Positions 1,255 through 7,306 of a stretch of DNA of 14,986 nucleotides are shown piece after piece. The translations under genes were made by a program, and so were the position numbers. The stretch is from a virus (Duplodnaviria; Heunggongvirae; Uroviricota; Caudoviricetes): the IMG/VR virus record IMGVR_UViG_2534681835_000019. The stretch is one strand, 5' to 3'. Within the stretch, counting starts at the first letter, position 1; every line of letters begins with the position of its first letter. Below the pieces are notes generated by a model. That model made no database searches, was not told where the DNA came from, and saw nothing but the letters and a program-made list of their open reading frames with translations.

Positions 1255-3166
1255 TCACTCCTCCGGACAGCTTCGCTGCCAGTTCTTTAAGGGTTGGCCG
1301 GGTCGTCTCTTCTTCCCGGGATTTTGCCAGTACAGCCAGATCAAGCTGCCAGCGTTGCACGGACACACGTAATGCCGCGTAGGCATACACCAGGCAGTCC
1401 AGCGCTTCGTTACGCCGCTTTTTGTTATCCCACAGCAGACGCATCTTTCCTTTTTCCCACTTCTCCACAAGCTCTTCCGCGACCAGTTGCTGCGCCTCTG
1501 TCTGCGAAAAAATCTCCGGATCATCAGGAAAACGGATGGCATACGACGTGGCTTCATCCGCAGGCGTGGGATCGGCTTTCATACGGGCATAGAGAATTTC
1601 TTTTGCGGTGTCCGTTCCCACTTCACACAGATACACGCCCCGCTGATTGCGGGTTTTTGGCATGGTGATCACCGGCTTGCCATAGACAGATGCGCCTTTT
1701 ACCGGCAGCACCCGGAAAACACCGTGTTTTTTTGATCTCTGATAAACAATTTCACCATCGATCCCCCCGGTGTCCCAGCAGACACGGGAAATAGTCATTT
1801 CGGTGCCATCCGCATGGCGGTATTTTTTGTTGATCGCCGCATCCACACGTAACAGCGTCTCTTCCTCATCAGGACGCCCCATAATGATGATTTTATCCAC
1901 CAGGAAGGCTTCCTCTCCCGGAGCCCATCCCCAGACATACATCTCAAAACGGTTTCGCTGCGAGTCAATGCCCGCCGTCAGATAAACCACCCGGGCAGGC
2001 ACCGCCGCCGTGTAACGCACCACCTTATCCATCAGTACCTGGTGATCGAGTTTTTCGCCCACGGCCTCTTCCCAGGTCTCGCCCAGCGTGGTGTTCACAA
2101 AGGTTTTCAGGCCGTTGGGATCTTTCAGTGCATCCAGCCAGTCATAGACAATCTGTACCCAGGTGGTGAACGGACTGTACGCCGTCCAGATATGGAACGT
2201 GATGGAGCGCGGCGGCGGAATTTCATCACCCCGGGCGCTGAAAAACGTCAGACCGTCACGGGTCCACATGCCTGTGTTTTCACAGATCCACCGCCCGTTG
2301 CTCTGGTCCAGTTCAGACTGATGGATCACGCAGCCATGATGTTCACAGAGGTAGAAAACACTTTCAGGGCTGTCCTTCTCCCATTTAAGCCCAAAAGGCG
2401 TGGACTCATCGCCAAATTTCAGATACTGCTCCTCCCCACAGTGCGGGCAGGGCACATAAAAACGCATAAAATGCGCCGACTCGTTAGCGGCTTTTTCGAT
2501 CTGGCAGGTGCCTTTGATTTTAGGCGTCGAGCCGCGAATGGATTTTGGCCACACCGACCCCTCAATACGCTTATCCCCCAGCAGGGTTGGCGAGCCCTCT
2601 TTTTCGACATCCGGCTCGAACGAGGAAAGTTCGTCATAGCAGACCACGTCCACGGATTTTTCACGGTAGTTTTTGGCGGCAGCGCCGCCCAGGCACCAGA
2701 AACCGACGCCCGATGAAAAGCGTTTCAGCGTGAGAGTATTGTCACGATGTTTACGACCCAGCCATGGGGAAAGGTCTTTCAGGCATGGCACGTTCCGAAT
2801 CGTCGCCTCCACGTGAGACTTCATAAAATCTTCAGCGGCAGAATCCGTGGGCTGAAAAAGCAGACTGTTTCGGGATTTATGCTCAATAAAATACCCGACC
2901 ACCCCCAGCAACATCTTTGTATAGCCAACACGGGCAGATTTAATCAGATTAACAGTGCGGATCTGATCATTCCCCATGCTGTTCATGATGGCGATCTGGA
3001 ATGGCAGCGTTTTCCATTCGCCCTCACCATATGAAGATTCTTTAGGCAGATAATAATTTTGATCAGCCCATTCAACTGGCGTCACCGGCAATGCCCTTAT
3101 CAGGGGCTGTAATGCAGTTGTGACAGCGCTCATCATATTATTCAGTTGTTGCTCTGATATATTCAT
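1238..3166 (-). CDS. A: Terminase large subunit (lambda gpA-like)
   Basis: Long minus ORF; from the ATG at 3166 the protein begins MNISEQQLNN...VEWADQNYYLPKES...RFYVPCPHCGEEQYLKFGD...TFHIWTAYSPFTTWVQIV...YLTAGIDSQ...RNEALDCLVYAYAALR, near-collinear with recalled lambda gpA. The ORF-track start at 3223 is a non-ATG upstream extension. Overlaps the Nu1 3' end as in lambda. Confidence 0.95.
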   Translation of the reverse strand: MNISEQQLNNMMSAVTTALQPLIRALPVTPVEWADQNYYLPKESSYGEGEWKTLPFQIAIMNSMGNDQIRTVNLIKSARVGYTKMLLGVVGYFIEHKSRNSLLFQPTDSAAEDFMKSHVEATIRNVPCLKDLSPWLGRKHRDNTLTLKRFSSGVGFWCLGGAAAKNYREKSVDVVCYDELSSFEPDVEKEGSPTLLGDKRIEGSVWPKSIRGSTPKIKGTCQIEKAANESAHFMRFYVPCPHCGEEQYLKFGDESTPFGLKWEKDSPESVFYLCEHHGCVIHQSELDQSNGRWICENTGMWTRDGLTFFSARGDEIPPPRSITFHIWTAYSPFTTWVQIVYDWLDALKDPNGLKTFVNTTLGETWEEAVGEKLDHQVLMDKVVRYTAAVPARVVYLTAGIDSQRNRFEMYVWGWAPGEEAFLVDKIIIMGRPDEEETLLRVDAAINKKYRHADGTEMTISRVCWDTGGIDGEIVYQRSKKHGVFRVLPVKGASVYGKPVITMPKTRNQRGVYLCEVGTDTAKEILYARMKADPTPADEATSYAIRFPDDPEIFSQTEAQQLVAEELVEKWEKGKMRLLWDNKKRRNEALDCLVYAYAALRVSVQRWQLDLAVLAKSREEETTRPTLKELAAKLSGGVNGYSR

Positions 3167-3644
3167 CAAGTAAATCCGGTAATTTATCCCCTGCCCGCGC
3201 ACACTGATTTGCCCCCTTAGCAATAAGGGTTTTCAGATGGTCAAGATGGCGCGGTGTTAAATCAGGAAACTGTCGCTGCATGGATAAAGGGATGGAATCA
3301 AGCGTACTGGATAACGCCATTGCCAGCTTACTGAGGGCAAAAATACAGAATCCGGCGTCAATAAGCTTACCTTCGGTTACCTGATTTTTAAGTTTTTGAG
3401 CTACGGCCTGTTCTTCTGTCAGTTCAGCTCTGGCCCGAAGCAGCCTTTCCTCCAGATCGCCCTCGTCATCAGGTATTCTCTGATTGTGTTGTCGCCGCTC
3501 GCGATCTATCTCCAGTACAGTTTTAACGTCATAAAAAACTTCCCTCCCCCGACGCTCAACAGGAGGAACGCCCCATTTATCAAATGCCTGAACAGATATA
3601 CCGATGGAGGAGGCCATATCACTTTTATTCAATAAAAAGGCCAT
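3138..3644 (-). CDS. Nu1: Terminase small subunit (Nu1-like), divergent N-terminal DNA-binding region
   Basis: C-terminal two-thirds (..AGFCIFALSKLAMALSSTLDSIPLSMQRQFPDL..LLDEYI) matches recalled lambda Nu1. Start chosen at ATG 3644 (MAFLLNKSDMASSIGISVQAFDKWG) with GGAG 5 nt upstream; ATG 3662 is an alternative. The ORF-track extension to 3749 overlaps the cosB region and is rejected. Confidence 0.8.
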   Translation of the reverse strand: MAFLLNKSDMASSIGISVQAFDKWGVPPVERRGREVFYDVKTVLEIDRERRQHNQRIPDDEGDLEERLLRARAELTEEQAVAQKLKNQVTEGKLIDAGFCIFALSKLAMALSSTLDSIPLSMQRQFPDLTPRHLDHLKTLIAKGANQCARAGDKLPDLLDEYIRATTE

Positions 3645-3871: not shown

Positions 3872-4070
3872 CGTAACCTGTCGGATCGCCGGAAAGGACC
3901 CGTAAAATGATAATAATTATCATCTACATGTCACAACGTGCATCTACGCCATCAAACCACGTCAAATAATCAATTATGACGCAGGTATCGTATTAATTGA
4001 TCTGCATCAAATTAACGTAAAAGCAACTTCAGATAATACAAATCAGCAACACTGAATATGGGGCAACATT

Positions 4071-4295
4071 ATGTCATCAAAGAACAGAACCCGCAGAACA
4101 ACAACCCGCAACATCCGATTTCCAAACCAGATGATTGAACAAATTAACATCGCTCTTGATCTGAAAGGTTCAGGAAATTTTTCAGCGTGGGTTATTGAAG
4201 CCTGCAGAAGAAGATTAATTAATGAAAAATATTCTCAATTTGTACCCAACAAAGACAAACACGACCAGAGCACCTGTTCAGACAGGTTTACTTAA
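4071..4295 (+). CDS. ylcI: DUF3950-type small protein, YlcI-like (ribbon-helix-helix-like)
   Basis: 74 aa, ATG start; MSSKNRTRRTTTRNIRFPNQMIEQINIALDLKGSGNFSAWVIEACRRRL closely resembles recalled E. coli DLP12 YlcI, which also lies next to the Nu1 homolog. Opposite strand to the late genes. Confidence 0.65.
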   Translation: MSSKNRTRRTTTRNIRFPNQMIEQINIALDLKGSGNFSAWVIEACRRRLINEKYSQFVPNKDKHDQSTCSDRFT

Positions 4296-4341: not shown

Positions 4342-4376
4342 TTATGGTAACAGGCAATAACTCTCTCAGATATTTT

Positions 4377-4691
4377 TTAGCATTTTTTTGACCGCGCGTT
4401 TCCGGACGTATTCTGTTCTCCTGTCCCTTTATATCGTCGGAATACCCGCCGCTCTTCAAATCCCATTCCCAACTCAGAATGTAGTCGGTTGACCGCTTGT
4501 TTTATTTCGGTCAGGTTCACCGGTGAAACCGGAGTCCGGCGCGCCTTACGCAAACACTCTGCTCGTTTCTGTGCCGCCACTTTTCTTTTCTGGTCATCAC
4601 TTAGCTGTACCATCACTTTTGCCCATCGTTCAGCTGCTCTCCGGTACAGTCCTTTTTTCTCCAGACATTCTGCCAGGTGATCATGTAGCAT
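4377..4691 (-). CDS. PerC-family (Pch-like) transcriptional activator, putative
   Basis: 104 aa, ATG start with strong SD (GGAGG, 7-nt spacer). The motif LEKKGLYRRAAERWAKVM matches my recollection of the PerC/Pch family signature (..KGLWRRAA.RW..). Family assignment is from memory, not a search. Confidence 0.5.
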   Translation of the reverse strand: MLHDHLAECLEKKGLYRRAAERWAKVMVQLSDDQKRKVAAQKRAECLRKARRTPVSPVNLTEIKQAVNRLHSELGMGFEERRVFRRYKGTGEQNTSGNARSKKC

Positions 4692-5153: not shown

Positions 5154-5621
5154 TCACGGTATACACTGGGTACGGATATATTCCTGTGCTCCTTCCAGTT
5201 GCTTCTGCATTGCCATCAGCCGTTCTCTGAGGATGAAATAATCCCGTTCAGCGGCTTCTGCCAGTCGGGGACCGGTTGCATTATCCACGCCGGAGGTGAT
5301 GGGGGCTTTACGCAAGGAGCCTGGACAGTTGGCGTTGATCCGCAGGCGCTTACGACCAGCGGCAACATCAGCGCGCAGAGTTTCATTTTCAGCTCTCGCA
5401 TCGGCTAATTCCCTCGAGTATCTGGCATCAAGTGCAGCAACATCACGCTGGCGCTGCTGCATATCAGTAATGGTTGCATTTGCCAGCTCCAGCTCACTGA
5501 CTTTTTTATCGCGCTGCTCTTTGTAGGTTATGGCGTTATCACGGTAATGATTCAGCCCCAGACTAAGCGCACCACAGGCCACCAGCAGGGCAATGATGAC
5601 CACGCACAGTACGCGGTTCAT
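5154..5621 (-). CDS. Rz: Spanin inner-membrane subunit (Rz, i-spanin)
   Basis: From ATG 5621: MNRVLCVVIIALLVACGALSLGLNHYRDNAITYKEQRDKK...DVAALDARYSRELADARAENETLRADVAAGRKRL...AERDYFILRERLMAMQKQLEGAQEYI, closely matching recalled lambda Rz. The ORF-track start at 5645 is a TTG extension. Confidence 0.9.
   Translation of the reverse strand: MNRVLCVVIIALLVACGALSLGLNHYRDNAITYKEQRDKKVSELELANATITDMQQRQRDVAALDARYSRELADARAENETLRADVAAGRKRLRINANCPGSLRKAPITSGVDNATGPRLAEAAERDYFILRERLMAMQKQLEGAQEYIRTQCIP
5216..5401 (-). CDS. Rz1: Spanin outer-membrane lipoprotein subunit (Rz1, o-spanin), embedded in Rz in another frame
   Basis: 61 aa, ATG start; MRELKMKLCALMLPLVVSACGSTPT..CVKPPSPPAWIMQPVPDWQKPLNGIIS has a lipobox (VSAC) and proline-rich segment and matches recalled lambda Rz1. 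Confidence 0.85.
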   Translation of the reverse strand: MRELKMKLCALMLPLVVSACGSTPTVQAPCVKPPSPPAWIMQPVPDWQKPLNGIISSSENG

Positions 5622-5622
5622 T

Positions 5623-5724
5623 TCACCACCAGCGTATCTGACCAATGAAATAACCGGAAGCCATAATCACAAACACCAGCCAGATAAGGATGAACTTCCA
5701 GGTGGATAATTTTTCAGCCATCAT
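5623..5724 (-). CDS. Hypothetical 33-aa single-TM peptide between endolysin and Rz
   Basis: Tandem ATG ATG at 5724..5719 preceded by GGGAG (7-nt spacer); MMAEKLSTWKFILIWLVFVIMASGYFIGQIRWW has one hydrophobic helix. Its stop lies 1 nt from the Rz ATG. No homolog recalled. Confidence 0.35.
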   Translation of the reverse strand: MMAEKLSTWKFILIWLVFVIMASGYFIGQIRWW

Positions 5725-5796
5725 TCGAATCTCCCGAATCAGTTTGCTAAAATCAAACACACTTTCTCCTTTGACTTTTCCGGAGTCAGGAAACAC

Positions 5797-5829
5797 AAAA
5801 CCCCACTTGCGGCCAACAAACGGGGTTTT
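5797..5829. terminator. Terminator-like hairpin downstream of the endolysin gene
   Basis: AAAACCCCACTTG-cggccaa-CAAACGGGGTTTT: 13-bp stem with 7-nt loop, followed by a U-rich run on either strand (GUGUUUCC on minus, ACUUUUAUUC on plus). Confidence 0.5.
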
Positions 5830-5918
5830 ACTTTTATTCACTTAGTTTTTGCCAGTTCGCAGGATTTCGTGTTATCCGCCCGTGTGAGCAAACCGCATTT
5901 TTCAGCAAAATATTCTGC

Positions 5919-6452
5919 TTATCTGTCAATTCCCCAGCACGCCAGCGCGCTCTCCTGGTCACGCCGTGAGACCTGACCGTAACAGTTATTTGAGCGAATA
6001 CGGCAGTCTCTGCCACCGTCCTTAATCCACCAGCGAATCGCCTCGCATGCTCCCCTGCGGTCACCAGCATTAATCCGTCTGTAAAACGTCGACGGGAAAC
6101 ACTTACCGGGGCCAATGTTGTACGGACAGAATGACGCAATCCCCGCTTTCTGGGGTTCGGTCAGTGGCACTCTGATGTTTTTCTCCACCCATGCCAGCGC
6201 CTTATCACGTTCAATGGCGTTAACCTGGTCGCATTTTTCCTTCGACAGCTTCATGCCAGGAATCACAGGCTTACCATCCACCATGATGGCACCTCGGCAG
6301 ATGGTCCAGATACCCGCACCATCACGGTATGCCGTGGTGTGGTTACCTTCCTTTTCATCCAGAAACTGGTCGAGAATGTCAGGCGCAGGCGCACCAGCGG
6401 CAATCAGCGCCAGAACGGCAGCCGACAGGCCGTATTTGATTTTGGTGTTCAT
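5919..6452 (-). CDS. R: SAR endolysin (phage-21 R-type lysozyme, GH24/T4-lysozyme-like)
   Basis: 177 aa, ATG start. N-terminal Gly/Ala-rich weakly hydrophobic segment (GLSAAVLALIAAGAPAP) typical of a signal-anchor-release domain, followed by the E-x8-D-x5-T catalytic triad (EGNHTTAYRDGAGIWT). Resembles recalled phage-21 R. Confidence 0.9.
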   Translation of the reverse strand: MNTKIKYGLSAAVLALIAAGAPAPDILDQFLDEKEGNHTTAYRDGAGIWTICRGAIMVDGKPVIPGMKLSKEKCDQVNAIERDKALAWVEKNIRVPLTEPQKAGIASFCPYNIGPGKCFPSTFYRRINAGDRRGACEAIRWWIKDGGRDCRIRSNNCYGQVSRRDQESALACWGIDR

Positions 6453-6494
6453 GGATATTTATCAGGATTTATCGGCAACAGATAACGAGCCAGC

Positions 6495-6917
6495 TTATAT
6501 ACGTCCTTTAAGATAAGTCAGTCCTGGATGAAACCAGTAAGCCGGCACTTTTTTAAAGGGCGGGTTGTCAAACTCACGAAGAAGAGCCTCCCGCACAACT
6601 GCATCCTTGTCCGCACCACTGGCCAGCGCTTCAATCTCAGCAGCTATCTGCAGATATCCCATGCAACGACCAATGCACTTCATCAGCCCCTGCTTTTTAT
6701 TGTTCTTCAGGTAATCAATGGCAAATTCAATGAGCACCTCACTATGCTGGTGCGATGGCGGTGTTACTTTTCCATTTTCTGAGATGGTTATTTTCCCAGC
6801 ATCACCGGATACAACAAAGGATGGCCGGTTACACTCCCATTCCAGCTCACTGAAATTATCATTATGAATACTGAAACACTCTGAGAGATTTCTGCTCATC
6901 GCGGCGTTTTTTTTCAT
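6495..6917 (-). CDS. Hypothetical protein inserted between holin and endolysin
   Basis: 140-aa ATG-initiated ORF with no strong SD and lower GC than its neighbours. Its start sits in an A8 tract and overlaps the 3' end of the upstream small ORF (6862..7011). No confident homolog recalled; E. coli Qin ydfR also sits between holin and lysozyme, but similarity is unverified. Confidence 0.5.
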   Translation of the reverse strand: MKKNAAMSRNLSECFSIHNDNFSELEWECNRPSFVVSGDAGKITISENGKVTPPSHQHSEVLIEFAIDYLKNNKKQGLMKCIGRCMGYLQIAAEIEALASGADKDAVVREALLREFDNPPFKKVPAYWFHPGLTYLKGRI

Positions 6918-7011
6918 CTTCAGAAGGCATCAGCGTCGACAGTTTTTTATTCAGTTCAGCAATTTCATTTTCCAGACGACTGAAGCGCTGATTCATTTCT
7001 TCATGGTTCAT
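6862..7011 (-). CDS. Hypothetical 49-aa coiled-coil-like ORF directly after the holin stop; possibly the 5' part of a frameshift-split gene
   Basis: ATG 7011 with GGGGAGA 7 nt upstream; MNHEEMNQRFSRLENEIAELNKKLSTLMPSEDEKKRRDEQKSLRVFQYS. Runs through the A8 tract (6907..6914) and stops 17 codons later. Deleting one A would fuse it in frame with 6495..6917. Confidence 0.35.
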   Translation of the reverse strand: MNHEEMNQRFSRLENEIAELNKKLSTLMPSEDEKKRRDEQKSLRVFQYS

Positions 7012-7014
7012 CAC

Positions 7015-7230
7015 CTAATCTCCCCGGGCAGCCTTGCGACGGTCCTCTTTAATTTTGAAATACAGGTTAGTCAGATACGTCAGCAGGCCAAACAGCAGAC
7101 TCCCCAGCACACCTATCGCCACCCACTGGGACGGAGAGACTTTGTCCAGCAGCTGCAGTAACCAGTATCCCGTCCCCACCGCTGACGTGGTGTATGACAC
7201 ACCTGTTGTGATTTTTTCCATCTGGTACAT
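7015..7230 (-). CDS. S: Class II pinholin (phage-21 S21-type) with dual-start motif
   Basis: 71 aa; [71 protein letters not shown] resembles recalled S21. ATG at codons 1 and 4 is the classic antiholin/holin dual start; two TMDs; SD GGGAGA upstream. Confidence 0.9.
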
Positions 7231-7265
7231 ACCCCGTCTCCCGTTATCCGGAAGCTCACAACATG

Positions 7266-7295
7266 AAAAAGGCCAGCAGCTGTTTACTGATGGCC
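7266..7295 (-). terminator. Rho-independent terminator in the holin 5' leader (minus-strand polarity)
   Basis: Minus strand reads GGCCATCAG-taaacag-CTGCTGGCC followed by UUUUUCAUG: 9-bp stem with one mismatch plus a U-tract. Confidence 0.6.
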
Positions 7296-7306
7296 CTGAC
7301 TCCCCG

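Follow-up and report, generated by a model that had tools for sequence, protein, structure and literature searches.

The lysis genes of phage 21 form the canonical pinholin/SAR-endolysin cassette without an insert. The Stx phage 933W resembles the locus described here in the order and families of its holin, lysozyme and Rz/Rz1 spanin genes, and its S gene is followed by R after 4 bp, with no gene in the gap. In BP-4795 the space from S to R holds a small DUF1327 protein, ORF47, and no other gene. Other YdfR/DUF1327 (PF07041) proteins, such as YdfR of the K-12 Qin prophage (103 aa), are found in this position between holin and endolysin in related prophages.

In a 2026 study (PMC13232886), two-hybrid and pull-down assays are reported to show E. 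coli YdfR interacting with the catalytic half of RNase E, and RNA is reported to co-purify with it. Our search of the literature found no link between ydfR and holin.

The same slot also houses members of PHROG 1085, for example phage 86 gp05 (YP_794052, 268 aa), the Stx2_95 protein BCI50300 (329 aa), the Stx2_12E129 protein BCI50505 (213 aa) and hypothetical E. coli proteins of 185 aa. In gp05 of the Stx2-converting phage 86 and in the protein of the Stx2a phage Stx2_95, an N-terminal DUF1327 is fused to a further C-terminal domain. DUF1327 is the N-terminal module of many members of this family, and the YdfR-only proteins are without the C-terminal domain.

Here, we examine a 14,986-nucleotide stretch of a Caudoviricetes virus (IMG/VR record IMGVR_UViG_2534681835_000019), called the window below. 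Over 14 kb it matches a lambdoid prophage of E. coli O111:H- strain 11128 with 99.9% identity. Like the PHROG 1085 examples, it has a slot gene between an S21-type holin and an MNTKIKYG-type lysozyme, on the same strand as both. The C-terminal domain of this slot gene is 84–96% identical to theirs and its N-terminal helix is identical to that of the 185-aa and 213-aa forms. Unlike them, the slot gene has lost 41 bp and is out of frame. We put a probability of roughly 0.8 on the interval 6495..7011 being a copy of PHROG 1085, an accessory gene that is optional in the late operon of lambdoid and Stx-type prophages, and on this copy having been inactivated recently.

The lysis cassette and its neighbours

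Along the minus strand, the esterase gene is followed by those of the DUF1378 protein, a DUF826 protein and the holin, then by the interval, the lysozyme gene, a small ORF and Rz with embedded Rz1 (Table 1). The lysis genes around the pseudogene are intact. The N-terminus of endolysin R is hydrophobic and rich in Ala and Gly, as is characteristic of the SAR type, and an E-x8-D-x5-T triad can be read directly from its sequence.

Table 1. Positions of the features discussed, numbered in the window unless a relative's locus is named.
Feature	Position	Strand	Basis
YlcI/YnfO gene	4069..4293	plus	RefSeq annotation of the near-identical 11128 region
PerC-family regulator gene	4375..4689	minus	RefSeq annotation of the near-identical 11128 region
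72-aa ORF between lysozyme and Rz	5623..5841	minus	last 45 residues match phrog_6632
SAR-type endolysin R (phage lysozyme), 177 aa	5919..6452	minus	PF00959, E=5.2e-24
AT-rich leader before R	6453..6494		
Whole pseudogene, frameshifted PHROG 1085 remnant (185-aa coiled-coil-N type)	6495..7011	minus	
Downstream ORF, 140 aa; complete conserved C-terminal domain encoded at 6498..6842	6495..6917	minus	phrog_1085 match
Upstream ORF, 50 aa; start GTG 7014 or ATG 7011	6862..7014	minus	ORF list
Sole remaining 9-bp direct repeat GATGAGCAG, the deletion junction	6892..6900	minus	alignment to intact alleles
A8 run just upstream of the junction	6907..6914	minus	sequence; found in intact allele L005 too
S21-type (class II) holin S, 71 aa	7015..7230	minus	PF04971 Phage_holin_2_1, E=8.5e-33
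DUF1378 protein	7799..7620	minus	
SASA/NanS-p-type esterase	9873..7936	minus	
ISEc47 (IS66 family; tnpA/tnpB/transposase)	about 10870..13290		
Phage tRNA cluster	13493..13744		
tRNA	13669..13744	minus	ARAGORN: Met (anticodon CAT); RefSeq: tRNA-Ile for the matching gene
Convergent ~105-aa gene of relatives	L003:2682-2996	plus	phrog_1853 type
Convergent ~105-aa gene of relatives	L001:3181-3495	plus	phrog_1853 type
Convergent ~105-aa gene of relatives	L096:4307-4624	minus	phrog_1853 type
Convergent ~105-aa gene of relatives	L098:585-902	minus	phrog_1853 type

The S to R gap amounts to 562 bp, made up of the decayed accessory gene and a spacer. The first-pass annotation had pointed to about 0.5 kb of extra DNA of lower GC between pinholin S and SAR endolysin R, and both points are borne out: PF04971 and PF00959 neighbours flank the slot, all on the minus strand, and at 0.445 its GC content is below that of S (0.528) and of R (0.549).

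The holin stop overlaps the start of the slot gene (TAGGTGATG), with TAG leading directly into GTG ATG, and a GGAG lies 8 nt ahead of ATG 7011. No promoter-like or terminator-like sites were found inside the slot. Together with the shared strand, this arrangement places the slot in the late lysis transcript. The first-pass annotation is right that the lysis cassette is interrupted on the late strand and that the insert is co-oriented with S and R.

Some further features of the region are recorded here in their own right. R genes of the MNTKIKYG type are always preceded by a conserved AT-rich leader, ending ..TGATAAATATCC-ATG or ..AATATTTAATATATCC-ATG, in the window as upstream of R in loci L005, L008 and L003. 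This leader has no obvious Shine-Dalgarno sequence. 933W, with a different R allele, uses GGGGAGAG at the S end. Between the lysozyme and Rz, where 933W and BP-4795 have an ant gene, the window has a 72-aa ORF, and the corresponding R-Rz gap carries no annotation in the RefSeq record of strain 11128.

Farther out, the PerC-family and YlcI/YnfO genes are located between the lysis cassette and the terminase genes. ISEc47 has the phage tRNA cluster on one side and the TerB/DUF3927/NanS-p genes on the other. This is the portion of the late region in which Stx phages such as 933W and the SJ3 prophage have their stx genes, flanked by the tRNA cluster or Q region and by the NanS-p esterase; the window contains no stx genes. 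One tRNA of the cluster, which ARAGORN and RefSeq name differently, is presumably a lysidine-modified ileX-type tRNA, as in other Stx-type phages.

A frame broken between direct repeats

The interval holds two overlapping ORFs in different frames. The upstream one encodes an N-terminal coiled-coil helix, MNHEEMNQRFSRLENEIAELNKKLS...KRRDEQ, whose N-terminus is identical to that of intact alleles, and then runs into an out-of-frame tail, KSLRVFQYS, and a stop. The downstream one matches phrog_1085 with E=1.8e-90 over profile positions 160–296 of 296. Such a match, together with intact homologues in the same slot of many E. coli prophages, sets the feature apart from chance. The description of the interval as coding sequence is not confirmed, as it is the remnant of a real gene but not one open gene. 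RefSeq/PGAP annotates the identical interval of NC_013364 as one pseudogene, ECO111_RS13535, ‘hypothetical protein, frameshifted’.

In the DNA alignment, the window tracks the Stx2_95 gene as far as CGCCGC-GATGAGCAG and picks it up again after a second GATGAGCAG. Intact alleles have both copies of this repeat, with starts 41 bp apart. A further comparison is with locus L005, where P0002, a 185-aa E. coli protein, is encoded between the same holin and lysozyme families; against its DNA the window shows one clean 41-bp gap, bounded by the repeat.

When the 41 bp are put back, a single open frame results. A search with the repaired protein retrieves real 185-aa E. coli proteins with 96% identity and full coverage (the intact P0001, 262 member sequences). 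The restored frame and the clean repeat-bounded gap against intact alleles show a repeat-mediated deletion, and this 41-bp loss between the 9-bp direct repeats broke the frame. The window copy occupies the family's usual place, the late operon on the same strand in or beside the lysis cassette, and is without the family's uninterrupted frame over N-terminal module and C-terminal domain.

Two other origins of the break were considered and rejected. A slip in the A8 run does not fit, as the upstream frame remains homologous beyond the run (KRRDEQ) and the alignment puts the break at the repeat-bounded deletion. A sequencing error does not fit either: 72 complete genomes, sequenced in many projects and among them the 11128 reference, have the junction, and 71 of them agree in every base. 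Nor does the break look like a programmed recoding site: most relatives are single-frame, the break is explained by the deletion and the A8 run is shared with intact alleles.

The parent family

The family combines a variable N-terminal part, either DUF1327/YdfR or a short coiled-coil helix, with a variable linker and a C-terminal domain that spans about 115 aa and is conserved. The window belongs to the lineage with the short helix. The C-terminal domain is marked by the motifs GRCMGYLQ-AAEIE and DFDNPPFK...W..PG..YLK. Its median pairwise dN/dS is 0.19 over 201 pairs, which indicates purifying selection and hence that the intact gene is real.

The first-pass annotation had suggested a comparison with DUF1327/YdfR-type proteins. 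This relation holds for the family, as phage 86 gp05 and the Stx2_95 protein carry DUF1327, but not for the window copy: neither of its ORFs has a Pfam match to PF07041, for which the gathering score cutoff is 25 and full-length relatives score 152 bits. The RNase E binding reported for YdfR is not transferable to the window copy, which has no DUF1327 module.

Searches of Pfam, NCBIfam and PADLOC with the window's slot ORFs gave no match, and the PDB sequence profile search found nothing. Fold searches with the C-terminal domain returned nothing specific, with no relative in PDB or BFVD. Across these five resources, the slot protein shows no similarity to a characterised lysis regulator, a defence protein or another known family. 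The outcomes named beforehand as fatal to a role in lysis, strong homology to a characterised unrelated family or no conservation across related prophages, are thus both absent; the family is conserved and uncharacterised.

From an alignment extended by distant relatives, AlphaFold2 models the C-terminal domain as a three-stranded beta meander followed by four helices (pLDDT 90, pTM 0.83). The intact 185-aa protein, modelled from a shallow alignment, reaches a pLDDT of only 55 and its model is unusable.

By hydropathy, neither the window ORFs nor the intact relatives have a signal peptide or a transmembrane segment, of which the first-pass annotation had asked for a prediction. Over 19 residues, the Kyte-Doolittle mean peaks at 0.95 in the ORF and the intact relatives; the holin reaches 1.83 and the SAR segment of R (residues 9–27) 1.74. 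The intact protein is accordingly neither a membrane-embedded holin or antiholin nor exported, and is predicted to be soluble and cytoplasmic.

The family is small: 1.84 billion representatives, searched exhaustively with a profile, yielded 41 clusters, and a scan of one genome per species found three loci, all in Escherichia or Shigella. Relatives at about 30–40% identity retain a DUF1327-like N-terminal domain and the C-terminal domain. They are located between the Q antiterminator and the holin, not between the holin and the lysozyme as in the E. coli relatives, so the constant feature is the late operon beside the lysis genes rather than the exact slot.

Some family members have a conserved gene of about 105 aa just downstream of them and convergent to them. 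This gene is of phrog_1853 type, with the motif ELSYLDC-WD. Its range extends from E. coli phages as far as relatives with about 40% identity, and phage 86 and Stx2_12E129 have it as a 104-aa gene; the window and most E. coli alleles are without it. It could serve as a functional partner.

Our tentative best guess is that intact members bind, or act as adaptors for, a host target in the cytoplasm late in infection. The only experimental lead is the RNase E binding reported for the DUF1327 module of some members. A bolder proposal is that the family represents an undescribed late-phase effector, in which a swappable N-terminal module is joined to a conserved domain without a recognisable fold relative, and which could tune host RNA turnover or lysis timing; in the window the C-terminal domain might then still be made at a low level. 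We would bet against it.

Spread of the broken allele and its reading

The interval 6453..7014 is 100% identical in strain 11128 and dozens more complete genomes. Of 5426 complete E. coli genomes, 72 contain a 45-mer able to match only the deletion junction, and the majority of these are O111:H8/NM STEC; the undeleted segment is in 749. In 71 of the 72 junction-bearing genomes, the 140-aa ORF retains the conserved domain without further damage.

Most of the 80 IMG/VR loci fetched are intact, with genes of 185, 268, 296–297 or 329 aa, and a minority are broken. The 41-bp deletion is carried by four of the 80. One carrier, L029 (about 2823..3381), has a slot 4 bp shorter still, which disrupts the start of the C-terminal domain. 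Other loci have truncated ORFs that suggest breaks elsewhere in the gene; for L084 this is confirmed, and L086 and L088 share its truncated 161-aa ORF. The family gene has thus been inactivated more than once, and such recurrent independent breaks with secondary loss are as expected of a dispensable prophage gene.

The comparison with known phages leads to the same view. The slot of 933W is empty and that of BP-4795 has the DUF1327 protein only, so the gene appears dispensable for the lysis cassette. Since distant relatives are moreover upstream of the holin, it is better seen as an optional late-operon accessory gene than as lysis machinery.

The favoured history, a recent inactivation, would run as follows. 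The ancestor would have been a soluble protein of 185 aa in the cytoplasm, with translation passing to it straight from the holin as the overlap of stop and start implies. The 41 bp were then lost, with a shift of the frame, by recombination or replication slippage between the two GATGAGCAG repeats. After induction, ribosomes that finish the holin would start at 7011 or 7014 and make the N-terminal helix and nine wrong-frame residues before the stop at 6862, so that only the 50-aa peptide is expected. The ORF of the C-terminal domain is still open but has no ribosome-binding site, and the DNA would still be transcribed as a spacer in the S-R-Rz late message. We infer that the window copy is probably a non-functional relic.

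One rival reading is that the 140-aa ORF has a translation start of its own, or that one at ATG 6899 gives a 134-aa form, so that the C-terminal domain is supplied without an N-terminal module. The domain is complete, open and modelled as a compact fold, and its undamaged state in nearly all junction-bearing genomes, while expected of a recent break, also fits a retained short product. The allele is unchanged in about 70 genomes and on two different prophage backbones; C-domain-only ORFs exist elsewhere (P0101, 140 aa, and 135-aa forms in L025, L043, L044 and L091); and an A-rich leader sometimes supports initiation without a Shine-Dalgarno sequence. However, no Shine-Dalgarno sequence was found before ATG 6917 or ATG 6899, and ribosomes on the upstream ORF stop 53 nt beyond ATG 6917, which makes both independent translation and coupling unlikely. 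Moreover, L029 has lost four more bases and the N-terminal end of the domain, most short database entries are flagged partial or adjoin frame breaks, and with only 3 differences in 345 nt to L019 the conservation is uninformative on selection. A functional short form is accordingly improbable in our judgement.

Far less probable is that the two ORFs are joined into a product of about 171 aa, which would miss only about 17 linker residues, by polymerase slippage on the A8 run (−1 A or +2 A) or by a +1 ribosomal shift. The run is 6 nt upstream of the junction, and removal of one A gives, by direct reading, ...SEDEK-NAA-MSRNLSECF... in frame with the C-terminal domain. Slippage on long poly(A) tracts rescues frameshifted genes in some bacteria, but a tract of eight As is near the lower limit for this in E. 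coli. The run is also unchanged in intact alleles, where it encodes EKKRR, and hence was not selected for recoding; a classic −1 shift on A_AAA_AAA enters the wrong frame; and no stimulatory structure or Rfam element was found in the slot. The original proposal of the first-pass annotation, an intact protein made in stoichiometry with holin and endolysin as a lysis regulator or as late cargo released at lysis, is just as hard to sustain. Position and orientation suit it, as do the overlapping start, the slot free of a terminator and the intact relatives, which are always in or beside the late-operon lysis cassette even at about 40% identity. Yet the frameshift makes a full-length product impossible for the window copy, and the missing membrane or export signal, the empty 933W slot and the lack of any match to a characterised lysis regulator or other known family all count against such a role.

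The inactivated accessory gene has not stayed on one prophage backbone. The Stx2a-encoding short-tailed prophage of SJ3 has the same broken allele and the same S and R proteins. Its identity to the window is 98.9% over 5176..9305, from the esterase through the lysis genes, while the flanking packaging and structural genes are unrelated. The near-identical block with unrelated flanks shows clearly that the module has been exchanged between prophage backbones and that the broken gene was carried along.

In summary, the locus appears to be an ordinary pseudogene, already flagged in RefSeq, and matters little for the window itself. Its parent family is of modest interest, being conserved, under selection and linked to lysis genes, with a fold that has no recognised relative in PDB or BFVD. 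The 41-bp junction is a clean lineage marker common to the O111 STEC prophages and a Stx2a phage of another strain, and its sharing shows that lysis modules are exchanged between prophage backbones.
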